64,000 nucleotides of DNA from a candidate division WOR-3 bacterium (GTDB lineage Bacteria > Hydrothermota > Hydrothermia > LBFQ01 > DSFT01). Each line of letters starts with the position of its first letter. Position 1 is the stretch's first letter. A program made the position numbers and the translations under genes. The DNA is taken from contig JANXBH010000001.1 in NCBI GenBank assembly GCA_025060695.1, forward strand, positions 90,730-154,729. The letters run 5' to 3'. The notes beneath the pieces are model-generated. The model saw only the letters and a list, made by a program, of their open reading frames with translations, did not search any database and was not told where the DNA came from. This document shows, one piece after another, positions 12,089 through 63,762 of this stretch.

Positions 12089-12105
12089 AGGGGGAACGGC
12101 CCCCT
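12089..12105 (-). terminator. GC-rich hairpin (GGGGG-AACGG-CCCCC) followed on the minus strand by a T-rich tract
   Basis: It immediately abuts the stop codon (12104-12106) of the TonB-dependent receptor gene. It is the only GC-only stem in an AT-rich intergenic region. Confidence 0.5.
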
Positions 12106-37700: not shown

Positions 37701-38897
37701 ATAGCACTTAAAACTTATTACTCTGACGGTAATAACTATAAACAAAGAATTATTATAATCGACCCAAGAACAGAGAGTATAGTAAATGAATTTAAGTATT
37801 TCAAAGGAAACGTATCAGCCAATTGGGATATATGTGCAAGTGATTTTGATTATGATAAGATGTATGAAGTAGTGTTTTTGGACTCAATGGGTTTTCTTCA
37901 TATTAAAAAAACAAACGGACAAAGTATAAATAATTTTCCAATTGATATAAAACCTTATCTTCCATCTTCAAATATTGATAACTTGGGTCAGTTTTCTTGT
38001 GCGATAGATGCCAAGAACAATAAAATAATATTAGGAAGTACGATGTCAGGAACACTTAACATCATTCTCATAAATGTGAATAGTGGAATGGTTGAGATGG
38101 TCCAAAGTATAAATCAATTTATAAATAATAATCCTATTGACAATTTTGCACTATCACTTGGAGACTTAGATAACAATCAAATACCAGAAATTATTCTAAT
38201 TACAAATCACAATTACTATCATTCAAAATACATACTTATTATTAAACAAAATGGTAGTTTACTTACAAAATTTACTGGTCCTGAAAAAGATTGGGTTTGG
38301 TATTCACCTGCAAGCATAGTAGATATATGGAATGACAACAAAATAGAGTTGGTAATTAGTCTTCCAAGAAGAGTATTTATACTAACTTATCAAGATAGTC
38401 TATTTCATAATTTTGGTTCACCTATATTACTTGCGGACGACACACTACCTGAAGGTTATCCATATTATTCACCTATATTTGAGGATATAGATAATAATAA
38501 CAAAGTAGAAATGTTCGTAATGCAGTTATCAAATCCCTTATACTCTTTTGATTTGGGAATAGCTGGGAAAATTCAATGGAATGGAAATAGAGCAAATCCT
38601 TTAAATACAGCGGAATGGGGGAAAAGAGAGTATACCACAGTGGAAGAAAAACTTTCTAACTATGTAAAGTTTAACTCCAAGTTATTCGCAATTGAATATA
38701 ACTTAATTAGAACTGAAAACTATGTGCTTAGAATTTATGATATTTCAGGAAGAGAAGTTTATGAAGACAAAGGAAATATAGAAGGAAAGGGTGTTTTGGA
38801 ACTTAGAAAATTAAAATTAAAGACTGGAATTTACATAGTAGATTTTCATTCGGATAATTATAAATTAAGGACAAAAGCCTTAAATCTTGGTTTATAA
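34752..38897 (+). CDS. large secreted protein: C25-like cysteine peptidase core, FG-GAP-like repeats, T9SS C-terminal sorting domain
   Basis: 1381 aa. Candidate catalytic dyad contexts FFFYIGHANGF and IAMFGGCWTGD. DIDGDGINEAIV-type repeats. C-terminal approximately 80 aa (NYVKFNSK...VLRIYDISGREVYED...GIYIVDF...KLRTKALNLGL) matches the Por/T9SS type-A CTD pattern. Confidence 0.55.
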   Translation: MLTLLFNLSFYYNEQNIKKLPILFEEGYPQIPYDYRLIEIPENAKNIKIKNTYYQKSLYQSNAILKYNDKIYYFDRTGALKTIDIPRINIGNRFPKSPIEIRSIGYFREKKYVLVFIYPIVYENGNLYLNEVISFDIEYEEEQRNYSIRPLPDSLDYAILTISLLKEPFDSIAHLSRIRGFRTEVFLVDTIKENPEKIRNFIIELYRTFGIKYLLIGADASIVKPWRFQVSFYDADQSFLTGPDVHTDYPYSALDGNYINGKKWKMGDSVIDPFADIGIGRLPVINTYEVFNYYRKLKDWTFNFQGNTNSFACLESEIALNYFGNYCEHIVLASNLPKITRLYEPFFNGQLTPQILFDSLNTNKPQFFFYIGHANGFYIASSYANPTYYVGIQDFYNASLNYSAPYIAMFGGCWTGDLEHTALVKNILTMPERGSIFSIGASKLDNTGSETARGMNFFYAFNSYNAKTIGDAYLHMVMGFAGSLFGVYSKLNMFGDPTIEPYFNGKNYISANHDNSFSDSLIINTIPNARVLLYDGELYVYTKSNNSGKAILRYNSNQAKTLLLSISKPSHIPYYTYVNYYPSEVILDSISLNSNSVIPGNTYELKFYLSNISSNNINVNFKVKFNNAIPDSIVQNLDFSPQESQIISSTITIKPDAKNLLVSIFINNNLIKRFSYIVQKPEIKLVGVKWENDSIALDIYNKSNINIYNIELKFLSSNVSKTLDSISAKSNTSYTTKLPRISNNPKLVISYAGKQDTYNLNYQLPLNPPQFYLFPRREGIYITFDTLDNSSRFYKIYRAKSPNGEYKFIDITNELSKLHMDYVDSFEFYYYKISSLDFYYNEGYISNYKSQIKSPNYSIYRPTYLPQQGEVPPIIGKFNSLEQNKQVLVFSPIYASFYNHQGINFNDYPKELKFRALSSALSDIDGDGINEAIVSAQKDGKSFLLLVKLDKIDTIFISNYWGDVSIYNKGLVIANFIGDTLPEIALKTYYSDGNNYKQRIIIIDPRTESIVNEFKYFKGNVSANWDICASDFDYDKMYEVVFLDSMGFLHIKKTNGQSINNFPIDIKPYLPSSNIDNLGQFSCAIDAKNNKIILGSTMSGTLNIILINVNSGMVEMVQSINQFINNNPIDNFALSLGDLDNNQIPEIILITNHNYYHSKYILIIKQNGSLLTKFTGPEKDWVWYSPASIVDIWNDNKIELVISLPRRVFILTYQDSLFHNFGSPILLADDTLPEGYPYYSPIFEDIDNNNKVEMFVMQLSNPLYSFDLGIAGKIQWNGNRANPLNTAEWGKREYTTVEEKLSNYVKFNSKLFAIEYNLIRTENYVLRIYDISGREVYEDKGNIEGKGVLELRKLKLKTGIYIVDFHSDNYKLRTKALNLGL

Positions 38898-50744: not shown

Positions 50745-51328
50745 ATTATTTCTTTTTCATCTATAAGATGACCCATTTTTTTAATCTTCGTTAAAATGTA
50801 ATTTTTATTGTATTTATTTGCTTTTACATAAACTGGTATTCTCTCCACAATTTCAATACCACATATACTAAGATGTTTTATCTTTTGTGGATTATTCGTC
50901 ATTAATCTTACCTTTTTTACACCTATATCTTTTAGAATTTCACATGCAACTTTATAGTTTCTTAAATCAGCTTCAAAACCAAGCTGGTGATTTGCTAAAA
51001 CTGTATCATATCCCAAGTCCTGTAAATAGTAAGCTTTTACTTTATTTATAAGTCCTATTCCTCTACCCTCTTGGTTTAAATATATCAAAATTCCTCTTCC
51101 TTCACTTGAAATTTTTTCTAATGCATATTTTAATTGAGCTCCACAATCACATCTTAAAGAGCCAAATGTATCCCCCGTAATACATTGCGAATGTACCCTT
51201 ACTAATATATTATCTCCAACTTCACCCATAATCAATGCAATGTGCTCTTTACCACCTTCAGAGTATACTCTTATAGTAAATTCACCAAAAATTGTAGGAA
51301 GACTTGCTTGAGCTTCAAATTTCACCAT
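50741..51328 (-). CDS. ribA: GTP cyclohydrolase II
   Basis: Zn site VHSQCITGDTFGSLRCDCG, and the LNQEGRGIGL and LMTNNPQK motifs. 195 aa monofunctional form. Confidence 0.85.
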   Translation of the reverse strand: MVKFEAQASLPTIFGEFTIRVYSEGGKEHIALIMGEVGDNILVRVHSQCITGDTFGSLRCDCGAQLKYALEKISSEGRGILIYLNQEGRGIGLINKVKAYYLQDLGYDTVLANHQLGFEADLRNYKVACEILKDIGVKKVRLMTNNPQKIKHLSICGIEIVERIPVYVKANKYNKNYILTKIKKMGHLIDEKEIM

Positions 51329-52172
51329 AGAAAACTTTATCCGCTCTATATGAGCTTCTTACGAGTGGTCCTGAGAATACTTCTTTAAATCCAATTTCTA
51401 ATGCTCTATCTCTATACCATTTGAATTTATACGGCGGAACATATTCTACTACGCTTAAGTGTCTTTTTGAGGGTTGTAAATATTGTCCAATTGTTAATAT
51501 ATCCACACCCACATTTCTTAAGTCTTTCATAGTTTGAATAACCTCCTCCTCAGTTTCTCCAAGTCCAACCATAATTGAACTTTTAGTTAATATATTGCTA
51601 CTTTGATTCTTTGCATGTTCCAAAACAAAAAGTGATTGTTTATAGCTTGCCCTTGGGTCTCTTACTATAGACGTTAGTCTTTCTACCGTTTCTATGTTAT
51701 GTGCAAATACATCAAGTGGAGATTTTGCTACTAAACTAATAGAGTTTCTATTTGCTTGAAAATCTCCAACAAGTGCCTCAATTTTAATATCTGGGAAATT
51801 CTTTCTTATTTCTAATATAGTTCTATATACGTGAAATGCACCACCATCTACTAAATCATCCCTATCAACCATAGTAATTACTACATATCTTAGATTTAGA
51901 TGTCTAATAGTTTCTACTACGTGAATAGGTTCTAATGGATCAATCCAACCTTTTGGATTTCCAGTTTTTACAGCACAAAATTTACAATTTCTGGTACAAG
52001 TATCTCCAAGTATCATTATAGTAGCTGTCCCGTGCGACCAACATTCGTTTATATTTGGACACTTCGCTTCTTCACAAACTGTATACAGTTTTTTATTTCT
52101 TAATATATCCTTGACTTCATAAAATTTATCATTATATTCAAGCTTAATTTTTAACCACTCAGGTTTGTTCAT
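51315..52172 (-). CDS. lipA: lipoyl synthase
   Basis: CEEAKCPNINEC (auxiliary cluster) and LGDTCTRNCKFC (radical-SAM CxxxCxxC). Confidence 0.9.
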   Translation of the reverse strand: MNKPEWLKIKLEYNDKFYEVKDILRNKKLYTVCEEAKCPNINECWSHGTATIMILGDTCTRNCKFCAVKTGNPKGWIDPLEPIHVVETIRHLNLRYVVITMVDRDDLVDGGAFHVYRTILEIRKNFPDIKIEALVGDFQANRNSISLVAKSPLDVFAHNIETVERLTSIVRDPRASYKQSLFVLEHAKNQSSNILTKSSIMVGLGETEEEVIQTMKDLRNVGVDILTIGQYLQPSKRHLSVVEYVPPYKFKWYRDRALEIGFKEVFSGPLVRSSYRADKVFYGEI

Positions 52173-52174
52173 TA

Positions 52175-52219
52175 TTTTAAAATTTTAAAACACATTTATT
52201 CACTTTAAAATTTAAAAAG
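52175..52219. promoter_or_regulatory. tandem TTTTAAAATTTTAAAA / CTTTAAAATTTAAAAA elements between lipA (-) and the + strand operon start
   Basis: lipA ATG 52172 is preceded on the minus strand by TAAAAT-containing sequence. The + gene GTG 52219 lies 7 nt after TAAAAT. Confidence 0.45.
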
Positions 52220-53037
52220 TGTCAAAAATTGTATACGATAAAATAAAATATGATGGGATTTCAAGTAGTTTTATTATTACACATGCGTTTGAAAAATTTC
52301 TAAAAGTCAACGTTTTTAATGGTTATATAATATTTAATAACAAGGATTTTGTATATGTACTAAACGGTGAACTCTATGGAATTAAGAAACTTGAAGATGC
52401 AAAGCAACCATGGATTGCTAATGTATACGAATTAAATTCAAAAACACTAATACTATTTATGAACTTTAAAAACTCAAAAAATTTAGAAAGTTTAAAGATA
52501 TCTTCAAGACTTTTTGATACACTAATATCTGAAACTCTTGAAATTACTAAATTTTTTTGGATTGAGATAAAAGATGGTAATAATCTTTACGATTTGGCAT
52601 ACTTTTTAGGAGAAGTTGTAGGGATTTATAGGAATTCTGTAAGGATCTTAGAATTACCCGAAAACGAATTATCAAACAGAATTGAGGTAAATGTTTTTGA
52701 TTTTAATGAATATCTTGAAACAAAAAAGGCAGAGATACTTAAGAACTTCTATATAAAAAGGTTTGAAAACATTTGGCAAAAATACAAAGAGACATTAATT
52801 ATAGAATATAGTAAGGAGAAGGCTGAAGTGGAATTTAGAAAATTACAAAAAGAATTATCAAAAAAATACTCAATTTTAGACCCATTGCTTGGTATTGTGG
52901 ACATAGATAAGAACTTTGACTTAAAAGTCCAATCACTAAATGAAGATGAGGTCTTCATAGTTAGAGAACTACTTCTGAATTTTTATTCAAAAACTATACC
53001 GAAGAAACTTGAAAAGATAAAAGAAGAGTTAGCATGA
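52219..53037 (+). CDS. hypothetical protein; first gene of a long + strand operon
   Basis: 272 aa with no motif recognised. GTG start 7 nt after CTTTAAAATTTAAAAA. Confidence 0.3.
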   Translation: MSKIVYDKIKYDGISSSFIITHAFEKFLKVNVFNGYIIFNNKDFVYVLNGELYGIKKLEDAKQPWIANVYELNSKTLILFMNFKNSKNLESLKISSRLFDTLISETLEITKFFWIEIKDGNNLYDLAYFLGEVVGIYRNSVRILELPENELSNRIEVNVFDFNEYLETKKAEILKNFYIKRFENIWQKYKETLIIEYSKEKAEVEFRKLQKELSKKYSILDPLLGIVDIDKNFDLKVQSLNEDEVFIVRELLLNFYSKTIPKKLEKIKEELA

Positions 53038-53753
53038 GAAAATTCTCAGATATTGTATTTTCAAGATTATCAAATGTTTTTAGAAGTTTATTTATAGCAA
53101 TTATAGTAATAAATGGTGTTTTGTTATTTTCTCTTTCTAAAATTTTTGAAAAATCTTCAGATATTGGCTTTTTAAGAGGACAATTAACCTCATTTTCTCT
53201 AATGATTTATGATATTATTGCAGGGATACACTCAAAGGAGTTTGCAAAATTATCACTTTCTGAAAGTATAAATAAAACTGAGCCAATATTAAAGAAATAT
53301 AGAGATGATGTTTGGTCAAAGGATTTTGGAAGATTCATTGAAAAATTTAAACTTTTTATAGAAAATCCAACTCAAAAAGCAGCAAATGAAATATTTCTAT
53401 TAGCTGAAAATTTAAATAGAAAACTGATTGAAATTGATGAAGAAAGCAGAAAAATTAGTTCAATGGGGGTTATTGTAGTAATAGCTTTAAATATCTTTTT
53501 TCTCGGTGCTTTAGGATTCTTTATGATAAACTACACTTATAAACTGTCTTCAGAGTTTTCCGCACCACTTATTGAAATAAGGAACATTATTTCAAAAATA
53601 GCCATAGGTAGTATAGATAAAGCGGTAAAATATGAGGGTAATATAGAGGAAGTTTATGATATATTCCAGAGTATTGAAACCTTAAGGGAAGATTTGTATC
53701 AAAGTAAGCTTAGGATACAAGAAATATTAAAGAAATACAGAGAAGGGAAATAG
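53034..53753 (+). CDS. membrane protein: TM, periplasmic helical domain, TM, HAMP-like domain, no output domain
   Basis: Two hydrophobic helices (LFIAIIVINGVLLFSL; GVIVVIALNIFFLGALGFFMI) and an approximately 50-aa amphipathic segment after TM2 (APLIEIRNIISKIAIGSIDKAVKYEG...) typical of HAMP. Confidence 0.4.
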   Translation: MRKFSDIVFSRLSNVFRSLFIAIIVINGVLLFSLSKIFEKSSDIGFLRGQLTSFSLMIYDIIAGIHSKEFAKLSLSESINKTEPILKKYRDDVWSKDFGRFIEKFKLFIENPTQKAANEIFLLAENLNRKLIEIDEESRKISSMGVIVVIALNIFFLGALGFFMINYTYKLSSEFSAPLIEIRNIISKIAIGSIDKAVKYEGNIEEVYDIFQSIETLREDLYQSKLRIQEILKKYREGK

Positions 53754-53768
53754 CTTTAAAATTATAGT
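53754..53768 (+). promoter_or_regulatory. CTTTAAAATTATAGT element 6 nt upstream of the recN ATG (possible internal promoter)
   Basis: TAGCTTTAAAATTATAGT-ATG at 53769. Confidence 0.35.
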
Positions 53769-55454
53769 ATGATATTAAATTTGAAAGTGAAAAATTTCTT
53801 GCTATTAAAGGAAGCACATATAGAATTTGATAAGGGTTTTAATGTGCTAACAGGTGAAACTGGAGCAGGAAAGTCATTATTACTAAAAGCATTAAGTTTA
53901 GCACTTGGAGATAGAATTGATTGGGAAATATTTACTGAAGAAAAGTCCTTAATTGAAGTTCAAGTTTTAGTTCCAGACGAGTTTTTAAGTCTCTTTGAAA
54001 ATTATGGTATAGAATTAGATGGAAATTTACTAATAATAAGAAGAATTATAGAAGGTGATAAAAGAAGAAGTAGAATATATGCAAATGACAATCTTGTTCT
54101 TTCAAAGACTATAAATGAAATAATAAGAAATCTGATAGAAATTCACGGACAATACGATACATATAAGTTATTCAATGAAGAGTATCAGATGGAAGTAATT
54201 GATAGATATGCAAAATCAAGAGTTTTTGAGAACGATTATCAAGCCAATATTTTAGATAAATATGCAAACAATGAAAACTTAATAGAAAGCTACAGAAAAA
54301 TTTATAAAGATTGGCTTTACTTAAATAATATCTATAACGAATATAAGGAAAAGGAAGAGAAATATATTCAAGAACTTGAGTTTTTAAAATATCAATTGAA
54401 TGAATTAGAAGAAGCAAATTTAAAAATAAATGAAGAGCAAGAATTGTTAAGGAAATTAGAATATTTAAGAAAAATAGAGGAAATTAGAGAAATAAAGCAA
54501 CTAATTAAAAATATTGTTTTTGAAGGAGAAGAGAATGTAATTTCTAAGTTATACTTTATTTTAAGAAAACTTGAGAATTTAGAAGATATTCAGGAATTTA
54601 GGGAATTAAAGGAAAAATTCGAGAATATTATATATGAACTAAAGGAGCTAAAACACTACTATAAAGATAACAATTTGGAAGAATACGAAAGCTTAGACTT
54701 TATACAAGAAAGGTTATTTTTACTAAATAGACTAAAAAAGAAATATTCAAAAAGTATTGAAGAATTACTAAACTATAAGGAGGAACTAAAGGAGAAAATA
54801 AAAAAGATAGAGAATTTACCTTTTGAAATTAAGAATTTATCTGAGAAAATTAAAGATTTAAGTAAAAATTTAGAAAACTTGGCAAATGAAATAAGTAAGC
54901 GTAGAAAGAACGCAAGCAAGAATTTTAGAGAAGAAATTATTAAAACTTTAAAGGAACTTGGAATGCCAGATGCGGAGTTTTTAACAAAATTTGAAGAAAT
55001 ACCTTTAGGTTATAATGGTAAGGATAGGGTTGAATTTTTGTTTTCTGCTAATAAAAATTTTCCACCAAGACCATTAAGGAAAATAGTATCAGGTGGAGAG
55101 CTTTCGCGCTTTGCTCTTTCACTAAAACTTGCAATAGCAGGTAAAGAAAGTCCCACAACATTAATATTTGATGAGATTGATACAGGTATAGGTGGAGAAA
55201 CTGCTCTAAAAGTTGCACAAAAACTGCAAGAACTTTCAAAATTCTACCAAGTTATAGTAATTACACATTTACCTCAAATTGCAAGCAAATCAAACAAGCA
55301 CTTTTTAATAATGAAAAAAGACGGTATAGCCCAAATAAATGAATTAGATGAAAAAGAAAGAGTTTTAGAAATTGCAAGAATGCTATCTGGTATAGTTTCA
55401 GATGAAAGTTTAAAACATGCAAAGTTTTTACTTTCTAACAGAAGTGCTTTATAA
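53769..55454 (+). CDS. recN: DNA repair protein RecN
   Basis: N-terminal LKVKNFLLLKEAHIEFDKGFNVLTGETGAGKSLLLKAL (Walker A), a long coiled coil, and a C-terminal SGGELSRFALSLKLA signature plus Walker B LIFDEIDTGIGG. Confidence 0.85.
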   Translation: MILNLKVKNFLLLKEAHIEFDKGFNVLTGETGAGKSLLLKALSLALGDRIDWEIFTEEKSLIEVQVLVPDEFLSLFENYGIELDGNLLIIRRIIEGDKRRSRIYANDNLVLSKTINEIIRNLIEIHGQYDTYKLFNEEYQMEVIDRYAKSRVFENDYQANILDKYANNENLIESYRKIYKDWLYLNNIYNEYKEKEEKYIQELEFLKYQLNELEEANLKINEEQELLRKLEYLRKIEEIREIKQLIKNIVFEGEENVISKLYFILRKLENLEDIQEFRELKEKFENIIYELKELKHYYKDNNLEEYESLDFIQERLFLLNRLKKKYSKSIEELLNYKEELKEKIKKIENLPFEIKNLSEKIKDLSKNLENLANEISKRRKNASKNFREEIIKTLKELGMPDAEFLTKFEEIPLGYNGKDRVEFLFSANKNFPPRPLRKIVSGGELSRFALSLKLAIAGKESPTTLIFDEIDTGIGGETALKVAQKLQELSKFYQVIVITHLPQIASKSNKHFLIMKKDGIAQINELDEKERVLEIARMLSGIVSDESLKHAKFLLSNRSAL

Positions 55455-55469
55455 TTTTGGCACATAATT

Positions 55470-56678
55470 ATGATAAGTAAAATTAGTGAAAGTAAAGTTC
55501 TAGCAAATAGTCTAAGGAGCATTTCTGTGGGATTTTCTAATAACGAAAAACCTTATATGGCAGGTATAGAAGCTGTAAAGGAAGCAATGGAATTGCTTAT
55601 GATAAAAGACATTTCATTTGCAATAGCTGTAATTTCAAAAGATTACGAATATAAAAAAGTTATAGAAGGAATAAAGCAGATTATTCCAAAAGCAACACTA
55701 ATTAGTTTATTTTCAGATAACATAACTACTTATAGCTTCATGTCTAACAAGGGAGTTGCAGTTTTGCTATTTACAAGTGAGATAAATGTCAATTATCACA
55801 TAGCAAAAGGATTTTCTTTAAGTGTAAAAAAATCCTTAAGTGAACTATTTTCCGAAATAGACCTTGAAAAAAAATCATACAAGAATGATATACTTATATT
55901 TTTCATACCCGGCTCTATACCACTGCCTGGGCAAAATAGTATATCGGTTATTGAAAATTATATTAAGGACTTTAACTGCATAGTAGGTGGGGTGTTTGGA
56001 ACTCTCAATTTAGTTGAATATCAAACATTTATCATAGACGAGAAAGTTTTAACTGACCACGCAATAGCTCTAAGAATACAAACGAATAATAATTATACAG
56101 TTTCACAAAGTTATGGTTTTCATCCTGTTAGACCATTCGTAGTATCGAGTGTAAAAGGGGATATGATAATTAGTTTAGATGATGGATCTGCATTTTATTC
56201 ATTAGCAAATGTTCTCACAAAAAGAGGAATAGACGATGGAATACTTAAAGACCCCATAAAAGCACAAAGACTCCTATCTAAATATCAGTTTGCAGTTGCT
56301 AACAAGGAAAAACCTGGTCTATTTAGGTCAATAGTTCCCTTGGCTATTACGGAAAGGGGTATAAAGGTTAACTCGTTTATAGAAAAAGATTCTACAATCT
56401 GGCTCATGGAATTTAGTAAAGAAGAGATATTTGAAGGCGTAGATAAAATGTCAAGTAGAGTTTTAAATAGTTTAAAGTCTATATCAGGAGGCATCATCTT
56501 TGAGAATGTTGTGAGAAAATATCTACTTGGTGAAGATTATGTGAAAGAAAAAAGAATTATTTGGGATAATCTAAAAGTTCCATTTATTGTTCTTGAGACG
56601 ATTGAAGAAATTGTATATAGTGAAAACACATATGGAGGTTCGCATAGTGGTTCAATATTAGGACTGTTTTTTGAATAA
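55470..56678 (+). CDS. hypothetical protein (possible FIST-type sensory domain; unverified)
   Basis: 402 aa soluble protein with no catalytic motif. Its size and placement directly upstream of, and overlapping, mglB suggest an input module. The FIST assignment is a guess that needs an HMM search. Confidence 0.25.
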   Translation: MISKISESKVLANSLRSISVGFSNNEKPYMAGIEAVKEAMELLMIKDISFAIAVISKDYEYKKVIEGIKQIIPKATLISLFSDNITTYSFMSNKGVAVLLFTSEINVNYHIAKGFSLSVKKSLSELFSEIDLEKKSYKNDILIFFIPGSIPLPGQNSISVIENYIKDFNCIVGGVFGTLNLVEYQTFIIDEKVLTDHAIALRIQTNNNYTVSQSYGFHPVRPFVVSSVKGDMIISLDDGSAFYSLANVLTKRGIDDGILKDPIKAQRLLSKYQFAVANKEKPGLFRSIVPLAITERGIKVNSFIEKDSTIWLMEFSKEEIFEGVDKMSSRVLNSLKSISGGIIFENVVRKYLLGEDYVKEKRIIWDNLKVPFIVLETIEEIVYSENTYGGSHSGSILGLFFE

Positions 56679-57147
56679 GGAGGAGGTTATGGAAAAAATA
56701 GAGGAACTTTTGAATCAACTTATAAGGAAGGTTCCACAAATAAGAGCAGCAGCGGTAGTAAATACTGAAGGCATAGTTATTGCATCAGTATTAGAAGGAA
56801 ACATAAGTGAAGAGAATTTTGGAGCAATGTCTGCTGCTTTACTGGGTCTTGGAGATAGCGTGCTTTCAGAAGTAAAAGGAGGAAAGCTTTCGGAAATATA
56901 TGTAAAGGGCAATGAAAAGATGATACTACTTTCAAAGATATCAAAAGACCAATTACTATCCCTCTCTATTTCATCTGATGCACCATTAGGTTTGCTTTTA
57001 GTAGAAGTTAGAAAAACTGCTAAGATGATTGGTGCTATTCTCTCAGAAATGGAGAAAACACAAACTGTTACGGATATAAGCGAACTATTAGGTGGAGATA
57101 CCTCTATAATAGAGGGCTTGTCATTCAAGGATTTATTAGAAGAATGA
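56671..57147 (+). CDS. mglB: Roadblock/LC7 domain protein (MglB-like GTPase-activating protein)
   Basis: VPQIRAAAVVNTEGIVIASV...GAMSAALLGLGDSV is the roadblock fold signature. Immediately upstream of mglA. Confidence 0.7.
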   Translation: MNKEEVMEKIEELLNQLIRKVPQIRAAAVVNTEGIVIASVLEGNISEENFGAMSAALLGLGDSVLSEVKGGKLSEIYVKGNEKMILLSKISKDQLLSLSISSDAPLGLLLVEVRKTAKMIGAILSEMEKTQTVTDISELLGGDTSIIEGLSFKDLLEE

Positions 57148-57159
57148 GGAGAATTTGAA

Positions 57160-57750
57160 ATGTTTATAGATACTAAGAAGAAAGAAATCAATGTGAAAAT
57201 TGTGTATTATGGTCCTGCCCTCTCTGGTAAAACTACTAATTTGAAAGTAATATATGCAAAACTAAATCCAAAATTTAGGGGTGATCTTGTTACTGTTGAT
57301 ACAAAAGGTGAAAGAACGCTCTATTTTGATTTTTTACCTATTGAAATAACATTGGCCGGTGGATTTAAGGTGAAATTTCACGTATACACAGTGCCAGGGC
57401 AAGTTTTTTATAAAGCGTCAAGAAAGTTAGTTCTAAAAGGTGCGGATGGCATAGTTTTTGTAGCGGATTCCTCACCTGAAAGAAGAGAATCAAACATTCA
57501 AATAATGCAAGAACTTATTGAAACTCTTGAGGAACAAGGCATATCATTAAATTCCATTCCACTTGTGATACAATACAACAAGCGAGATATTCCTAATGCT
57601 ATGAGCATAGATATAATGAATGCGGATATAAATCATTTAAATAATCCCTACTTTGAAGCCATAGCAAGTCAAGAAAAGGGAGTTTTTGAAACCTTGGATG
57701 CAATTGTAAAACTCGTAATTAAAAAGCTAACTACGAAAACCCCTGTATGA
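57160..57750 (+). CDS. mglA: Ras-like small GTPase MglA
   Basis: KIVYYGPALSGKTTNL (P-loop), TLYFDFLP...FHVYTVPGQVFY and IQYNKRD. Near-identical to the canonical MglA motifs. Confidence 0.85.
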   Translation: MFIDTKKKEINVKIVYYGPALSGKTTNLKVIYAKLNPKFRGDLVTVDTKGERTLYFDFLPIEITLAGGFKVKFHVYTVPGQVFYKASRKLVLKGADGIVFVADSSPERRESNIQIMQELIETLEEQGISLNSIPLVIQYNKRDIPNAMSIDIMNADINHLNNPYFEAIASQEKGVFETLDAIVKLVIKKLTTKTPV

Positions 57751-59042
57751 TTACAACAATAGGAAATTTAATAGACCTAAGTTCAGATATATTGGTTGAA
57801 CTTGATAACAATTTTAATATTAAACTATGCAATGCAAAATTTAAGGATTACTTTGGGGACATTACGAACTTTTTTAGTATCTTTCCATTAGCATATAGGG
57901 AAGTTATACTAAGGCTTATAGAAAATGCACAAAAAACCTTAACCCCGCTCAATATTAGAATACCTATTTTAAGAGGAGAAAAACAAGAAATAGTTTATAT
58001 GAAAGTATTTCCTGTTGAGAAGGGTTTATTTATTTCCATAAGACCACAAAAATCATCAAGTATCTCTGAAGATATAATAAATTCAATTGATTATGGAGTA
58101 ATACTAATTTCAAAGGAAGGTAATTTAATATACAACAACAACTATGCCAAGAATTATGAAGAATATTGGAACGAGCTAATAAAGGAAAGCTTAAAGCAAC
58201 AAGATAGAAACTTTGAAGTTAATGTCAAAGGCAAAACATTTGAAGTATTTCAAAAAGAATTTGAAAGAAAAATTTCAGGCAAAATATTACTTTTTAGAGA
58301 TATTACTCAAATCAAGAGGATGCATGATTTAATGTCACTTGTTGATAGGTTAAGTTCAGTAGGTCTCATAGCAGCATCACTTGCCCATGAAATAAAAAAT
58401 CCACTAACAAGCATAAAAGTTCTATCACAAGTTTTAGCTAATGACTTAAGCAATGATAAAAAAGAAATAGCTTTAAGGATCTCAAGACAAATAGATAGAG
58501 TAAATGAGCTTATTTCAAAACTTCTTATATACACAAAGCCTTCAAAGTCAAAACCAGTCTATGTAAATCCAACCGAGATTATAAATGAGCTTGAAGGTAT
58601 CATTTATGGACAACTTATAAGTAAAAAAATTAGGCTTTATAAAGATATAGATACGAACGTTGAGATATTTGTTGATCCGAAAGACTTACACCAGATATTA
58701 CTAAATTTAGTTCTAAATTCAATAGACGCGTTAAGTGAAGGTGGATATATTAAAATAGAGGCTGGCATATCAGGTATAGTTTCAACTGAATTAGAACCAT
58801 TAGCATACATTAAAGTAATAGATAATGGTTGTGGTATTCCAAGAGAAAAACTAAAGGAGATATTCTATCCATTTTACACAACCAAAAAAAGTGGCACAGG
58901 ATTAGGACTATTTGTTGTTCATAAACTTGTAAAAGATAATGGAGGAATGATAGAAGTAGAGAGTGAAGTGGGACAAGGAACCACATTTACAATTTACTTT
59001 AAAGGGAGGGTAAAAAATGCGAAGAATAATGATAGTAGATGA
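57747..59042 (+). CDS. sensor histidine kinase (PAS-like N-terminus, HisKA, HATPase_c)
   Basis: H-box LAHEIKNPLTSIKVLSQVL, N-box LNLVLNSIDAL, G-boxes DNGCGIP and GTGLGLFVVHKLV. No TM, so cytoplasmic. Confidence 0.8.
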   Translation: MITTIGNLIDLSSDILVELDNNFNIKLCNAKFKDYFGDITNFFSIFPLAYREVILRLIENAQKTLTPLNIRIPILRGEKQEIVYMKVFPVEKGLFISIRPQKSSSISEDIINSIDYGVILISKEGNLIYNNNYAKNYEEYWNELIKESLKQQDRNFEVNVKGKTFEVFQKEFERKISGKILLFRDITQIKRMHDLMSLVDRLSSVGLIAASLAHEIKNPLTSIKVLSQVLANDLSNDKKEIALRISRQIDRVNELISKLLIYTKPSKSKPVYVNPTEIINELEGIIYGQLISKKIRLYKDIDTNVEIFVDPKDLHQILLNLVLNSIDALSEGGYIKIEAGISGIVSTELEPLAYIKVIDNGCGIPREKLKEIFYPFYTTKKSGTGLGLFVVHKLVKDNGGMIEVESEVGQGTTFTIYFKGRVKNAKNNDSR

Positions 59043-60063
59043 CGAAGAAGATATAGTTTTAGGTCTTTCTAGATATTTAAAGAAAAATGGATATGATGTT
59101 GTACATGAAACAAGTCCTAAAAAAGCTTTAGAAATACTGTCAGCGGAACCAGTTGATATTTTAATAGCGGATGTCAAAATGGATGAGATGTCGGGTTTAG
59201 AATTAATAAATCAAGCAAGACAAAAAAATTCAGATATTAAAGTAATTATCATGACCGCAAGGGGTTCAGAAGAAGTAGAGAGAATAAGCTATGAAAGAGG
59301 GGCATTGGAATACCTTGAAAAACCATTTGATGTGAGCTATCTTTTAGAAGTTTTAAAGAAAATAGAGGTAGGTGGCTTTAAAGGTGTTGTAAAGGAGTTA
59401 GGCTTAGTAGATTTTTTGAACATACTAAATATGGAAAGAGCTATAGCTGTTGTAAATGTTACATCCGCTATAGGTAGTGGAAAGATTTATTTTGAAAATG
59501 GAGAAATAGTACACTCACAATTTCAAGACAAAGAAGGTATAAATGCATTAAAAGAAATATTAAATTTAAAAGGAGGTTCATTTAGTGTAGAAAGGAATGT
59601 TAAAACACCAAAGAAAACAATAAATATGCCATTTAGTAATCTCATGCTTGAAGTTTATGCAAGGACCGATGAGGAAAAAGTAGATATACCATTTGAAGAT
59701 TGGAGTATTATAACGGAAGAGGTTAAAGTTTTAAGTGATGAAGTATATACTAAACTTGACAAGGAGATTAACTCAATTTTTAGTTTTGATACAAATCTTA
59801 AGGGCATATCGATATACGATTTTCAAGGAAATACTTTATATTTAAAGGGTAATGACTATAAGTCGTTAGTATTGGAAATCACAAAAATAGAAGCATTTAG
59901 TGAGGGAGTATTGGAGTTATATAATAATCAGATTATATACATTAAAAGGGATAATGAACTATTTTTTGTCATTGAAATATCGAATACTTCCTTATCTCTT
60001 GTGAAGGTGAGATTTAACAAGATTATAGCAAACCTAAGTGAGATTATAAAAGGAGGAAAGTGA
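59017..60063 (+). CDS. response regulator with C-terminal PATAN/DUF4388 domain
   Basis: REC domain (IMIVDDEEDI...DILIADVKMDEMSG...IMTA). Then GFKGVVKELGLVDFLNILNMERAIAVVNV...GKIYFENGEIVHSQF...GINALKEIL, which matches the DUF4388/PATAN pattern. Confidence 0.7.
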   Translation: MRRIMIVDDEEDIVLGLSRYLKKNGYDVVHETSPKKALEILSAEPVDILIADVKMDEMSGLELINQARQKNSDIKVIIMTARGSEEVERISYERGALEYLEKPFDVSYLLEVLKKIEVGGFKGVVKELGLVDFLNILNMERAIAVVNVTSAIGSGKIYFENGEIVHSQFQDKEGINALKEILNLKGGSFSVERNVKTPKKTINMPFSNLMLEVYARTDEEKVDIPFEDWSIITEEVKVLSDEVYTKLDKEINSIFSFDTNLKGISIYDFQGNTLYLKGNDYKSLVLEITKIEAFSEGVLELYNNQIIYIKRDNELFFVIEISNTSLSLVKVRFNKIIANLSEIIKGGK

Positions 60064-60064
60064 T

Positions 60065-60451
60065 ATGGATAAGATTCAAGAAATACTATATGAAATGTCA
60101 AAGGATATACCTGGTTATGTTGCAGGTGCTGTTGTTGAAAACGAAGAAGGACTAACCATTGTAGAAGAAAGAAACGTCCCAGATATAGATATACAAATAT
60201 CCGCAGCTTATAGTGTAGAGGCCTTAAAATTTCAAGAAAGAGTGGTTAGTGCACTAAATTCTAATGACAAAGCAAGAGCAATTATATCAATTAGTGGAAA
60301 TTACTTAATAATTACACAACCAATAGGAAGTAGTAATTTTTGCTTACACATAATAACAAATAGAGAAAAGAGTGCTCTTGGTATAATCTTGGCTTTACTT
60401 TCAAAATATGAGCAAATATTGAACAAAGCAGTTTCAGAATGGGTCTTATGA
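60065..60451 (+). CDS. second Roadblock/LC7 domain protein (MglC-like)
   Basis: 128 aa. IPGYVAGAVVENEEGLTIVEE...ISAAYSVEAL is a roadblock-fold pattern distinct from the first copy. Confidence 0.5.
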   Translation: MDKIQEILYEMSKDIPGYVAGAVVENEEGLTIVEERNVPDIDIQISAAYSVEALKFQERVVSALNSNDKARAIISISGNYLIITQPIGSSNFCLHIITNREKSALGIILALLSKYEQILNKAVSEWVL

Positions 60452-61227
60452 AAGGGAGGGCATATGGTATAACTGACTTAGGGAAAAAACGTGTAAAAAA
60501 TGAAGATTTTTTTGCAGTTGATCCTTCTATTGGGCTATTTATAGTAGCAGATGGTCTTGGTGGAAGAATGTCAGGTGATAAAGCCAGTTATGAAGCAACA
60601 CAAACATTTATTGAAAAATTAAAAAGCTTAATAAATATCTATAATGAGCCTAAAATCATTTTAGAAAGTGCATTTAAAGAAGCAAGTAAAAAGGCTTATG
60701 AAATAAGCAATTCAGATGAATATTATGGAGCTATGACTACATTTACAGCTTTATTTCTATATAAATCAAAATACTATATAGTTCATGTAGGAGACACAAG
60801 AGCATATTTACTTAGATTAAATAGATTTTTTTATCAAATTACTGAGGATGACACACAAGCACAAATATTAGTAAGAAAAAAAGCACTATCACCGAAAGAA
60901 GCAGAACATCACCCGTCAAAACACGTTCTTACAAAAGCACTCGGTCATAAACCCCTAATAAGACCTAAACTTTATGTTGGACATGTAATGGATGGAGATA
61001 AGTTTCTTCTATGTTCGGATGGTCTATATATTTACTTTTCAAATGACGAGATGAGAGAAATTCTTATGAAATACAAACCAAAGGAGGCAATAGAAATACT
61101 CGTAAAACTTGCAAACGATAGAGGTGGTGAGGACAACGTAACAGGCATAGTTATTGAGTTAATTAAATCTGATAGTGGTATAGTAAGTCAATTTAAAGCA
61201 ATTTTAGAAACAATCCTAAGAAGATGA
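60439..61227 (+). CDS. PP2C-family Ser/Thr protein phosphatase
   Basis: GITDLGKKRVKNEDFF, FIVADGLGGRMSGDKAS, HVGDTRAYL, LCSDGL, and GGEDNVTGIV near the C-terminus. Confidence 0.8.
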   Translation: MGLMKGRAYGITDLGKKRVKNEDFFAVDPSIGLFIVADGLGGRMSGDKASYEATQTFIEKLKSLINIYNEPKIILESAFKEASKKAYEISNSDEYYGAMTTFTALFLYKSKYYIVHVGDTRAYLLRLNRFFYQITEDDTQAQILVRKKALSPKEAEHHPSKHVLTKALGHKPLIRPKLYVGHVMDGDKFLLCSDGLYIYFSNDEMREILMKYKPKEAIEILVKLANDRGGEDNVTGIVIELIKSDSGIVSQFKAILETILRR

Positions 61228-62279
61228 TAGGTACAGTTATCGCAGATAAATATAAAATTACAAGAAAAATAGCTTCAGGTGGTATGGCAGAAGTTTATGA
61301 AGCAATACAACCTATAGTAAGAAGAAAAGTTGCAATAAAAATACTATATCCACAATATTCAAAAGATGAAAAAGCCAGAGAATTATTTTTTAGAGAAGCA
61401 AGAATCGTAGCACAAGAGCTTGAACATCCTAACATAGTAAAGGTGTACGATTTTGGTATAATTGACGACAACCTTTATCTTGTAATGTACTACGTAAGCG
61501 GAGAGACACTTGAAAGAATAATTAAAAGAGAAGGGAAATTGGATATTAAAGAAGCTTGCTATATAGTCTTAGAAGTTTTAAAAGCATTAGACTATGCACA
61601 CCAAAAAAATATAATACACAGGGATATTAAACCTGGGAATATTATGATAACTCCTGAAAAAAGAGTTTATTTATTAGACTTTGGTATTGCTGCACTTTTA
61701 ACAGAAGATAGAGAGAAAGGAAGAGTTCCTGGTACACCTGAGTATATGTCGCCCGAGCAATTTAGAGGGAAAATAGACAAAAGAAGCGACCTATATTCAC
61801 TCGGTGTAGTTCTATATGAAACTCTTACAGGACAATTACCATTTAAAGGAAATGATATTTGGGAATTACAAAGGAAAATATTTACAGAACCACCTATCCC
61901 TCCATCCCATCATAATCCAAACGTTCCAAAATCATTAGACGATATCGTTCTAAAAGCTTTAAATAAAATTCCATCTGAAAGATTTCAAACAGCATATGAA
62001 TTTGCAAATGCTATATTAGATACCAATATTATTGAAAATTACTATATAGAATTTAAAAAGACTGATGTGAAAAATGAAGTTATAAGAGGTGGTATAGTTC
62101 AAGAGGAAGAAACTGAAAAAGGGAAAAAAACTCAATTTGTCCCAATTTCAGATGATAGCGAAACCGAATTTGAATTTATAGAGGAAAAAACAAAATTCAA
62201 TAAAAACATAATAATTTTAGTAATTTTAGGGATTTTAGTCTTAGGAGGATTTCTATGGTTTTTATTATTTTCTCGATAG
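61224..62279 (+). CDS. Hanks-type Ser/Thr protein kinase with C-terminal TM anchor
   Basis: GGMAEVY, VAIKIL, HRDIKPGNIMI, DFGIA, GTPEYMSPEQ, and a terminal hydrophobic helix IIILVILGILVLGGFLWFLLF. Confidence 0.85.
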   Translation: MIGTVIADKYKITRKIASGGMAEVYEAIQPIVRRKVAIKILYPQYSKDEKARELFFREARIVAQELEHPNIVKVYDFGIIDDNLYLVMYYVSGETLERIIKREGKLDIKEACYIVLEVLKALDYAHQKNIIHRDIKPGNIMITPEKRVYLLDFGIAALLTEDREKGRVPGTPEYMSPEQFRGKIDKRSDLYSLGVVLYETLTGQLPFKGNDIWELQRKIFTEPPIPPSHHNPNVPKSLDDIVLKALNKIPSERFQTAYEFANAILDTNIIENYYIEFKKTDVKNEVIRGGIVQEEETEKGKKTQFVPISDDSETEFEFIEEKTKFNKNIIILVILGILVLGGFLWFLLFSR

Positions 62280-62593
62280 ATACGATAAATTTAGATAATA
62301 AAGTATTTGAAATAGCTAAAAAATTAAATTGTCAAGTTTGTGCAGGTGAAAATGTAGCATATTCACAAAGTGATTTAGCAGTAGACATGAGAAACAAAAT
62401 AAGAGAATTGCTAAGGGAAGGAAAGACAGAAAAAGAAATATTGGATTATTTTGTATCCGTATATGGTGAGCAGGTTTTAGCAGAACCACCTAAAAAAGGT
62501 TTCTTTAATTTTCTTTGGATTATTCCCAATGTAGTTATAATACTATCTATCTTAGGTATCTTGTTATACTTTGCAATAAAGAAGAAGAACTAA
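62255..62593 (+). CDS. CcmH/CycL/NrfF-family CXXC protein
   Basis: LNCQVCAGENVAYSQSDLAVDMRNKIRELLREGKTEKEILDYFVSVYGEQVLAEPP is the CcmH motif pattern, followed by a TM helix. The start is uncertain because it overlaps the kinase 3' end. Confidence 0.5.
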   Translation: MVFIIFSIDTINLDNKVFEIAKKLNCQVCAGENVAYSQSDLAVDMRNKIRELLREGKTEKEILDYFVSVYGEQVLAEPPKKGFFNFLWIIPNVVIILSILGILLYFAIKKKN

Positions 62594-62594
62594 T

Positions 62595-63335
62595 ATGTTC
62601 ATCAAGTTTAAAAAAATGGATGCTTGTGGAAATAATTTTATAGCAATGACAGAAGATGAATTTGAAAAAATAGATGATCCATATCTTTTTACAACTGAAA
62701 TATGCAATAGTAAAAAATACATCGGGGCGGATGGGTTAATAGTAGCAATGAAAGATGAAAACTACGACTTTAGATTTAAATATATTAACTATTTAGGAAA
62801 GGACGTGCCATTTTGCGGTCATGCTATAAGATGCTTAACATTTCTTGCATACTACGAAGGATTTGTCAAGAAGAAAGAAATGCATATTTTAACAGAAATT
62901 GGAGTTAAGAAAACAATTATAAGGAATATTTCTGGCTGGAAGGCATTTATAGGTTTAGAGTTTGAGAATTTTGAAATTGGAGTAAAGCACTATGTAAAAA
63001 GTGTAGAAAATGTAGAAAGTTATAATATTAAGGAAACTGCTATGGAATTTTTTAAAAATTCAGAGAAGCATTTTAATGTATATAGTGAAATAGAAGAAGG
63101 TAAAATTATGATTAGGACTTGGGAATATGGAAGAGATAGGGAGGAACTTAGTTGTGCAACAGGTGGTCTTGCTTGTGCATTAGATTATAATAAAGCAAAA
63201 AAATTAAACTCAATAGAAGTTATCCCAAAATCTAAAATACCCATATATATTGAAATACTAAAAAACAAAGCCATTCTATGGTCAGATGTAAGAATAGTTC
63301 TTCAAGGGGAAATATATGAACCTATTAATTTTTGA
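62595..63335 (+). CDS. dapF: diaminopimelate epimerase
   Basis: KMDACGNNFIA (first catalytic Cys motif) and a second Cys near SCATGGLAC. Confidence 0.8.
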   Translation: MFIKFKKMDACGNNFIAMTEDEFEKIDDPYLFTTEICNSKKYIGADGLIVAMKDENYDFRFKYINYLGKDVPFCGHAIRCLTFLAYYEGFVKKKEMHILTEIGVKKTIIRNISGWKAFIGLEFENFEIGVKHYVKSVENVESYNIKETAMEFFKNSEKHFNVYSEIEEGKIMIRTWEYGRDREELSCATGGLACALDYNKAKKLNSIEVIPKSKIPIYIEILKNKAILWSDVRIVLQGEIYEPINF

Positions 63336-63762
63336 TAGAGATGGGACCATAATAGAAAATTCACATTATCCAGGCTATCCATGGCAAATAAAATTAAAAA
63401 AGGGTATAAAGGAAAAACTCATGAAATATAGCAAAGAATATAAATTTTTTATAATTAGTAATCAATCGGGTATAAAAAGAGGATATTTTTCTCTAAACCA
63501 TCTAAATACCATTCAAAGATATATTGACCTAATGCTTTATCCTATAAAATTCGAAAGGGTATACTATTGCACACATCATCCAAATGAAAACTGCTCTTGT
63601 AGAAAACCAAAGAACTATTTTTTAAGGAAAATTTTATATTCATATAATTTTAATAAATGCTATGTGGTAGGAGATAGAGAAAGTGATGAATTACTTGCAA
63701 AAAGTCTAAATATTAGATTTATTCATATAAATGAATTTTTACTACTTCCAAACCTTCCTTGA
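63316..63762 (+). CDS. gmhB: HAD-family D,D-heptose-1,7-bisphosphate phosphatase (GmhB-like)
   Basis: FDRDGTI (HAD motif I), ISNQSG (motif II), and the Zn-binding CTHHPNENCSCRKPK typical of the GmhB/HisB-N subfamily. Confidence 0.7.
   Translation: MNLLIFDRDGTIIENSHYPGYPWQIKLKKGIKEKLMKYSKEYKFFIISNQSGIKRGYFSLNHLNTIQRYIDLMLYPIKFERVYYCTHHPNENCSCRKPKNYFLRKILYSYNFNKCYVVGDRESDELLAKSLNIRFIHINEFLLLPNLP

Follow-up and report, generated by a model that had tools for sequence, protein, structure and literature searches.

In the polarity module of Myxococcus xanthus (MglA, MglB, MglC and RomR/RomX, fed by the Frz chemosensory system), MglB, a GTPase-activating protein (GAP) of the roadblock type, assembles with a second roadblock protein, MglC, and with the receiver protein RomR, and this complex determines GAP activity at one pole (PMC10329633); the masK kinase operon (masABK) adjoins mglBA (PMC3546991). 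MglA proteins of group 1 are defined by an intrinsic Arg beside the G2 Thr, a G3 motif TVPGQ and a roadblock gene within four genes (Wuichet & Sogaard-Andersen 2014, PMC4316618). Characterised members act on type IV pili, gliding or polarity, and observations dating from 2006 and 2014 had already linked MglA/MglB genes with PATAN and recognised 'one MglA : two MglB' systems (PMC4316618). PATAN is an output domain whose only binding partners established by experiment are PilB1/PilC (bioRxiv 10.1101/2021.06.11.447907), and NosP (FIST) proteins bind haem/nitric oxide (NO) and control autophosphorylation of an operon-encoded, sensor-less cytoplasmic histidine kinase (HK) that feeds an operon-encoded regulator (PMC12570481). 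Here we describe a locus at 55470-62279 (+ strand) of a 64,000-nucleotide stretch from a candidate division WOR-3 bacterium (contig JANXBH010000001.1, assembly GCA_025060695.1; the whole stretch is called the window), in which genes for FIST, roadblock, MglA, HK, PATAN response regulator (RR), PP2C phosphatase and Ser/Thr kinase (STK) proteins lie side by side.

Conservation and boundaries of the cassette

Synteny was compared across ~40 loci from genomes and metagenomes (L numbers below), anchored on homologues of MglA, FIST and the RR and scored with the window's proteins, and domains were called by Pfam and NCBIfam searches of the translated open reading frames (ORFs). From the comparison with some 30 related loci a conserved block emerges with the order FIST-roadblock (MglB-like)-MglA-PAS/HK-RR-Robl2-PP2C(-STK), which in the window comprises the following genes.

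55470-56678, + strand: stand-alone FIST_N+FIST_C protein, 402 aa (Pfam); first gene of the cassette
56671-57147, + strand: Roadblock/LC7 protein in the MglB position (Pfam Robl_LC7)
57160-57750, + strand: group-1 MglA small GTPase, 196 aa (PDB alignment and motifs)
57747-59042, + strand: soluble histidine kinase, PAS-like + HisKA + HATPase_c, 431 aa (Pfam)
59017-60063, + strand: response regulator, REC-PATAN-roadblock (Pfam, AlphaFold2 (AF2) and hhalign)
60065-60451, + strand: Robl2, divergent roadblock-fold protein, 128 aa, in an MglC-like position (weak Pfam match, hhalign, AF2/Foldseek)
60439-61227, + strand: PP2C-family Ser/Thr phosphatase, 262 aa (Pfam)
61224-62279, + strand: Hanks-type Ser/Thr kinase (STK), tail-anchored (Pfam Pkinase)

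Order and orientation of the block are the same in every related locus long enough to show it, and all named cassette loci come from metagenome-assembled genomes (MAGs) of WOR-3/Hydrothermae(ota), uncultured bacteria of hot springs. Loci L019–L032 derive from hot-spring samples of the Yellowstone type. MglA is 86–89% identical to that of the window in clade A (GC content 26–32%), 79% in L014 (GC 43%), 65% in clade B (GC 47–53%), 62–63% in L015, L036 and L038 (GC 56–59%) and 60% in L039, and the lowest identities to the other window proteins are 31–33% for FIST, 40% for the HK, 44% for the RR, 40% for Robl2, and 45% each for PP2C and STK. Across lineages the cassette junctions range from −26 to +21 nt and locus GC from 26 to 59%, and the flanks change between clades. 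To judge from these sequence comparisons, 55470-62279 is a vertically inherited eight-gene signalling cassette of WOR-3/Hydrothermae organised around a group-1 MglA switch, and recN and its other neighbours are bystanders. The cassette MglA protein is matched exactly in WOR-3 MAG GCA_026416795.1 (contig JAOAEM010000001.1).

The first-pass annotation, made from the window's sequence alone, had treated an 11.5-kb run (52219-63762, + strand) as a single operon of sixteen genes and had named neighbourhood conservation as a comparison that could refute it. We count 14 consecutive ORFs, all co-directional, which is also the number of names in its own list, and its statement that gaps are at most 15 nt is borne out by the measured junctions (successively −4, +15, +15, −8, +12, −4, −26, +1, −13, −4, −25, +1 and −20 nt), with overlaps of up to 26 nt. 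The neighbourhood comparison is positive for eight of these 14 genes, and the run as a whole is not co-conserved. The proposal that small GTPase, His-Asp and Ser/Thr phosphorylation chemistries meet in one unit holds for a co-inherited cassette around MglA, roadblock and PATAN proteins. The run is bounded on the 5′ side by a divergent lipA-like (lipoyl-synthase-like) gene (51315-52172, − strand; spacing 46 nt) and on the 3′ side by a convergent − strand ORF at 63742, and its GC is ~29% throughout. The remaining genes of the run are as follows.

52219-53753, + strand: hyp272 (272 aa, no domain) and TM239 (239 aa, two transmembrane (TM) segments); genome-specific, outside the cassette
53769-55454, + strand: recN (TIGR00634); flanking gene, outside the cassette
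62255-62593, + strand: ccmH-like gene (Pfam CcmH); flanking gene, outside the cassette
62595-63762, + strand: dapF-like and HAD-IIIA (gmhB-like) housekeeping genes (Pfam/NCBIfam); outside the cassette

RecN scores 441 bits against a cut-off of 408 for TIGR00634 and CcmH matches Pfam at 4.1e-27; the DapF-like protein falls under its NCBIfam cut-off, and the last ORF of the run is a HAD-IIIA/GmhB-like phosphatase. Hyp272 has no Pfam or NCBIfam match. TM239 has two hydrophobic TM-like segments and no HAMP or other Pfam match even at E≤1, and it is never linked to the cassette in relatives, which removes the HAMP-only membrane protein that had been placed in the module. The earlier domain calls for recN, the mglB-position roadblock, small GTPase, HK, REC-PATAN, PP2C, STK and CcmH agree with Pfam/NCBIfam.

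That all 14 genes form one functional operon, in which recN, ccmH, dapF, gmhB and both unknown ORFs would work together with the GTPase module, appears very unlikely, and the synteny comparison largely refutes it. Co-transcription is physically possible, as all 14 are co-directional with junctions no wider than +15 nt and no terminator-like site between genes, and in every clade A locus recN either overlaps FIST or lies directly against it. However, recN lies upstream of FIST in clade A only and is absent there from clades B, C, D and L039; it thus stands at the 5′ edge as a clade-specific neighbour and is not embedded in the unit as had been claimed. The ccmH gene follows STK only in window-type loci (L001, L010, L011, L023 and L028), and outside clade A the cassette occurs without recN or ccmH between unrelated flanks (PolyA_pol, Lum_binding, OsmC, YidC, glycosyltransferase and FeS_assembly_P). 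Hyp272, TM239, dapF and gmhB adjoin the cassette in none of the relatives compared: hyp272 and TM239 are absent upstream of recN, and PolyA_pol or other genes occupy the dapF/gmhB position. Tight packing of unrelated genes is also routine in compact AT-rich genomes.

A promoter scan of this 29% GC DNA returned 79 promoter-like sites against 68 expected, which is not above background, and a terminator scan was uninformative (2 terminator-like sites against 4 expected). A sigma-70-like pair, TTTACT-17-TATAAT (10/12), is present at 55427-55455, in the last part of recN and 15 nt upstream of the start codon of FIST, and could be an internal cassette promoter.

Components of the predicted circuit

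The cassette MglA aligns end-to-end (residues 2–190) with M. xanthus MglA (PDB 6hjh/6h17/5ymx) at 225 bits and 55% identity, and with Thermus thermophilus MglA (3t12) at 215 bits; Pfam gives Arf/Ras matches. The P-loop GPALSGKTT, G2 R-T, G3 TVPGQ and NKRD motifs are present, with 'gERTlyfdf' aligned to 'tDRTlffdf' and 'yTVPGQ' identical. A Robl_LC7 gene ends 12 nt upstream of mglA and a second roadblock gene lies three genes downstream, within the distance that defines group 1. By alignment and motifs, the cassette GTPase is a bona fide group-1 MglA.

The genome's second MglA falls in a clade apart from that of the cassette and is roadblock-less. This paralogue, 58% identical to the cassette MglA, is encoded at L007:8611-11727 (JAOAEM010000001.1, ~116.5–119.6 kb) with a PntB transhydrogenase-beta gene on one side and an FtsX/MacB-like permease gene on the other, junctions of 1–4 nt and no roadblock gene nearby, and the PntB-MglA-FtsX-like trio is conserved across WOR-3/Hydrothermia (L005, L006, L007 and, on the − strand, L032:14776-17906). 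The MglA homologues of L005–L007 (58–62% identity) were rejected as cassette members, and since they belong to this different paralogue, MglA identity alone is no cassette marker.

The protein in the MglB position matches Pfam Robl_LC7 at 3.1e-11. The best PDB matches of its profile are the Asgard roadblocks 7f8m (1.8e-18) and 9jue, and it also matches 7yh1, MglC 7ct3 (1e-3) and CvnB5; T. thermophilus MglB is not among the PDB matches at E≤10. We call the protein MglB-like by position and fold because its sequence is not close to characterised MglB. Its true start is likely the ATG at 56689, as orthologues begin MEK.... Beyond the roadblock core, all MglB-like cassette proteins carry the same acidic tail, GGDTSxLEGLSFxDLLEE, which is invariant and recalls the regulatory helix at the C-terminus of M. 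xanthus MglB.

The 402-aa protein, described by the first-pass annotation as of unknown fold and directly coupled to mglB, has Pfam FIST_N (1.6e-9, 38.4 bits) and FIST_C (2.1e-6) matches. The FIST, PATAN and Roadblock profile searches which that annotation proposed proved informative, and the coupling to mglB stands, with FIST orthologues always immediately upstream of the roadblock/MglA pair. The protein has no TM segment. Its subfamily is rare: an exhaustive profile search of 1.84e9 representatives found seven proteins at E≤1e-30 and 84 at E≤1e-10, the placeable members again from Hydrothermae/WOR-3, and the subfamily occurs in only six GTDB species representatives. Its profile matched no solved relative in the PDB. 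His197, His218 and His392 are invariant in the subfamily alignment.

The HK has Pfam HisKA (2.1e-12) and HATPase_c (2.6e-26) matches, a weak PAS_8 match (orthologues have clear PAS/PAS_4 matches), a readable H-box SLAHEIKNPL and no TM segment. HK and RR lie two to three genes downstream of FIST, and a stand-alone FIST, a cytoplasmic HK and an RR make up a NosP-type gene set. In L040, whose FIST is a distant member of the subfamily (122 bits), FIST is followed directly by a PAS protein with no mglB/mglA between, and the N-terminus of this PAS protein aligns with the cassette HK of L039 (E 9e-9). We assign FIST as a candidate NosP-like auxiliary sensor of the cassette kinase because FIST, a soluble HK and an RR share the cassette, because of the FIST-PAS adjacency in L040, and by the NosP precedent. 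The L040 contig is 2.5 kb long (L040:3-2527), and its FIST gene lies between the PAS gene and a secretin gene of the PilQ/GspD type (Secretin 3.5e-50).

The RR matches Pfam REC (3.3e-25) and DUF4388/PATAN (PF14332, 3.1e-15), in agreement with the REC-PATAN regulator first annotated, which overlooked an additional C-terminal roadblock domain. The layout is REC 1–117, PATAN ~123–221, a disordered linker and roadblock ~241–344, and the phospho-acceptor site D52, T80 and K102 is invariant in 112 homologues. An AF2 model built with these homologues has a predicted local distance difference test (pLDDT) score of 84.9, PATAN at ~130–220 and a C-terminal domain of alpha-beta-beta-alpha-beta-beta-beta-alpha topology (pLDDT ~90), which hhalign matches to the MglB-like family with 97.9% probability (E 6.5e-13); many RR homologues, outside WOR-3 too, carry Pfam Robl_LC7 at the C-terminus. 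REC-PATAN-roadblock regulators are widespread (Thermodesulfobacteriota, Calditrichota, Proteobacteria). The RR family is wider than the cassette, since the distant REC-PATAN-(roadblock) regulators of L016, L017 and L018 stand alone, without MglA, HK or STK neighbours. Two of these paralogues, from WOR-3 MAGs (L016:8944-11029 and L017:6068-8224), have a 351/365-aa protein directly before them (1–4 nt) with sub-threshold Pfam matches (E 6e-3 and 1.5e-4) to PorV, a protein of the type IX secretion system (T9SS); such PorV-like neighbours may link PATAN regulators with type IX secretion.

Robl2 matches Pfam Robl_LC7 weakly (E 0.0067), and MAPKK1_Int is matched in four of ten orthologues. hhalign aligns Robl2 with the MglB-like family over 121 columns (59% probability, E 9e-5), and a single-sequence AF2 model of low confidence (pLDDT 60) has roadblock topology, its Foldseek PDB matches all being roadblock proteins (MglB 1j3w at TM-score 0.67–0.69, MglC 7ct3, LAMTOR and the Asgard Roadblock3 9jue); the Robl2 profile matched no roadblock, and nothing meaningful, among PDB sequences. 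The gene is in every complete related locus and starts −1 to +3 nt from the RR gene end in six representative loci (one or two per clade; L039 left out), with 1 nt in the window. The second roadblock protein of the first-pass annotation is thus supported, though weakly, and the locus has three roadblock units, not two. From gene order we infer that Robl2 may be an MglC-like bridge between the receiver protein and MglB.

The Ser/Thr branch consists of PP2C (Pfam PP2C_2 1.4e-13, 51 bits; PP2C 4.2e-9), which is present in all complete related loci and has readable metal-binding DG motifs, and STK (Pkinase 4.5e-54, 184 bits), with readable VAIK, HRDIKPGN and DFG motifs. STK has a TM segment at residues 329–347 followed by four residues and is tail-anchored with no extracytoplasmic domain; the C-terminal TM recurs in orthologues of all clades, and the rest of the cassette proteins are soluble. 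Both enzymes and the membrane anchor belong to the module as first proposed, except that one Hydrothermae sub-clade ends its cluster at PP2C, without STK. This sub-clade, together with the fact that PP2C/STK pairs are common generic modules, would suit two independent neighbouring systems, FIST-Robl-MglA-HK-RR-Robl2 on the one hand and PP2C-STK with unrelated substrates on the other. We regard such a division as quite unlikely, as PP2C directly follows Robl2 in every complete eight-gene locus, and STK and PP2C overlap by 4 nt in all clades that have STK (four of the five lineages) despite their differing downstream flanks. In the 10-gene variants, which belong to two deeper lineages (L015/L036/L038 and L039), only an FHA-TPR gene (492–519 aa) intervenes between Robl2 and PP2C, and there is a second, soluble kinase, an arrangement hard to explain without functional coupling. 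We place the Ser/Thr branch in the circuit because this FHA phospho-threonine reader is inserted exactly between Robl2 and PP2C. In the high-GC 10-gene variants, the genes in front of the cassette (L015:1160-5674, also L036 and L037) encode a single-domain receiver, a phosphatase of the CheC/CheX type, a TPR protein of 780 aa and a PATAN-TPR protein, which suggests a further chemotaxis-like input layer.

Proposed mechanism and output

By analogy with the systems introduced above, we favour, with a probability of roughly 55% for the reading as a whole, a cassette through which a stimulus would switch the polarity or activity of a surface apparatus. FIST would act like NosP, as a ligand sensor tuning autophosphorylation of the soluble PAS-histidine kinase, which would phosphorylate the RR at D52. 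The phosphorylation state of the RR would then set the pairing of its roadblock domain with Robl2 and/or the MglB-like dimer, and this pairing would set GAP activity and in turn the level or location of MglA-GTP, as a fused counterpart of the RomR-MglC-MglB chain; hydrolysis by MglA would need just the correct placement of its own Arg and Gln. PATAN would tether the complex to an effector machine, by precedent most likely the type IV pilus motor. The membrane-anchored Hanks kinase and PP2C would supply a reversible Ser/Thr phosphorylation input on a cassette component, presumably read by the FHA-TPR protein in the 10-gene variants.

Several points weigh against this reading. The FIST_C match (28.3 bits) is marginally below the Pfam cut-off of 28.5, haem/NO binding is putative, and the cassette HK has a PAS region of its own, unlike NosK. 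The MglB-position protein scores 26 bits for NF052242 (MglB), for which the cut-off is 200; M. xanthus MglB chains match its profile only at E 0.5–0.8, and position and fold are the grounds for its presumed GAP function. For Robl2 the fold is a weak assignment, drawn from weak sequence signals and a model of pLDDT 60, and STK, as seen above, is not obligatory in cis. The output itself is a guess by analogy because the window, otherwise housekeeping in content, has no genes for pili, gliding or T9SS next to the cassette.

The last point bears on another possibility, that of a real signalling unit with a non-motility, conservon-like output (such as remodelling of the envelope or cell cycle, development, secretion, or a response to stress or to redox/NO), which we consider tentative yet deserving of weight. 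Actinobacterial conservons regulate development, metabolism and drug resistance, not motility (PMC4316618), NosP systems act on biofilm and c-di-GMP phenotypes (PMC12570481), the cassette has no motility genes at its flanks, and the second MglA of the same genome is in a non-motility context, PntB-MglA-FtsX-like. However, the cassette MglA is of group-1 type and 55% identical to that of M. xanthus, in a group whose characterised members act on type IV pili, gliding or polarity (PMC4316618), PilB1/PilC are the only PATAN partners established by experiment (bioRxiv 2021.06.11.447907), and the distant FIST-PAS relative in L040 adjoins a secretin gene. That secretin gene and the PATAN precedent are hints of a pilus/secretin apparatus.

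We also considered that FIST, beside mglB/mglA, acts on the GTPase cycle itself, as the missing guanine nucleotide exchange factor (GEF) or GAP co-factor, with the three roadblock units forming a phospho-regulated GTPase platform, a Ragulator/Rag analogue integrating His-Asp and Ser/Thr phosphorylation. Such a role is conceivable because no RomR, RomX or RomY is present, and we think it unlikely.

For the polarity or activity switch that we favour, we infer a motility or polarity output by analogy, and the published precedents (PATAN-PilB/PilC and MglA-type IV pili) speak for type IV pili no less than for T9SS/gliding. A T9SS in the organism is plausible because a 1381-aa Peptidase_C25 (gingipain-like) protein with FG-GAP repeats, encoded at 34752-38897 of the window, has a borderline Por_Secre_tail sorting domain (26.9 bits, cut-off 27) and relatives encode Por_Secre_tail proteins. 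Elsewhere in the window, two large ORFs of 577 and 605 aa (8016-9749, + strand, and 12104-13921, − strand) have no Pfam match at E≤0.1.

Comparison with known systems

Literature searches for FIST with MglA, for PATAN with roadblock proteins and for WOR-3 motility returned no description of this cassette. In the literature searched we found neither an association of FIST with MglA nor a conserved cassette that adds FIST, a dedicated HK, a REC-PATAN-roadblock RR, a third roadblock protein and a PP2C/Hanks-kinase pair (with or without FHA). The cassette extends MglA-type regulation to an uncultured phylum related to the Fibrobacteres-Chlorobi-Bacteroidetes (FCB) group and links FIST (NosP-type) sensing to a small GTPase. 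It offers testable pairings: of the HK with FIST, of the RR's roadblock domain with Robl2 and with the MglB-like protein, and of STK/FHA with cassette members. The REC-PATAN-roadblock architecture may serve more generally as an adaptor that couples two-component signalling to small GTPases, a role suggested because such regulators are widespread outside WOR-3.

With NosP-NosK-NosR the cassette shares a stand-alone FIST encoded with a cytoplasmic HK and its RR, and known FIST proteins regulate kinase autophosphorylation (PMC12570481). It differs in that its FIST subfamily is very divergent, in that mglB and mglA lie between FIST and the HK, and in that the RR output is PATAN-roadblock and not a c-di-GMP enzyme. 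The cyanobacterial PatA-type regulators PixG, PixE and LsiR likewise combine PATAN and a receiver in one protein, with PATAN binding other proteins, PilB1/PilC (bioRxiv 10.1101/2021.06.11.447907), whereas the order is reversed (REC-PATAN in WOR-3, PATAN-REC in cyanobacteria), the WOR-3 RR adds a C-terminal roadblock domain, and its partner kinase is a classical HisKA protein and not a CheA-type system.

Actinobacterial conservons (CvnA HK, CvnB roadblock, CvnC DUF742 and CvnD GTPase) resemble the cassette as conserved operons of an HK, a roadblock protein and an MglA-family GTPase (PMC4316618). They have, however, an MglA of group 2, with GTPGQ and lacking the intrinsic Arg, a HAMP kinase in the membrane that has no cognate RR, and DUF742, whereas the WOR-3 cassette has a group-1 MglA and a soluble PAS kinase with a cognate RR, plus FIST, PATAN, PP2C and STK. 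No ORF has a Pfam match to DUF742, and with a soluble HK and G3 reading TVPGQ the cassette was rejected as a conservon.

The likeness to the M. xanthus polarity module is broader. Both have a group-1 MglA with the intrinsic Arg and TVPGQ, a roadblock partner beside mglA, a second roadblock protein (MglC in Myxococcus; in the cassette Robl2, a weakly supported MglC-like candidate), a receiver protein that joins, or in WOR-3 would join, phosphorylation signalling to roadblock proteins (RomR/MglC/MglB, PMC10329633), and a protein kinase gene adjoining the mgl genes (masK in Myxococcus, PMC3546991). The WOR-3 receiver instead carries PATAN and a roadblock domain in the same polypeptide and is without a RomR-like C-terminus, no RomX or RomY was found, a dedicated HK replaces the CheA-type Frz input, and the cassette further includes FIST, PP2C and a tail-anchored Hanks kinase; its MglB-position protein is remote in sequence from M. 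xanthus MglB. The Myxococcus genes are dispersed, and the wiring from chemosensory phosphorylation through receivers and roadblock adaptors to MglA was pieced together from them over many years, whereas the WOR-3 genes are gathered in one cassette that encodes a candidate for the full circuit as a unit, a compact blueprint of GTPase-phosphorelay coupling in uncultured organisms whose function is read by analogy.

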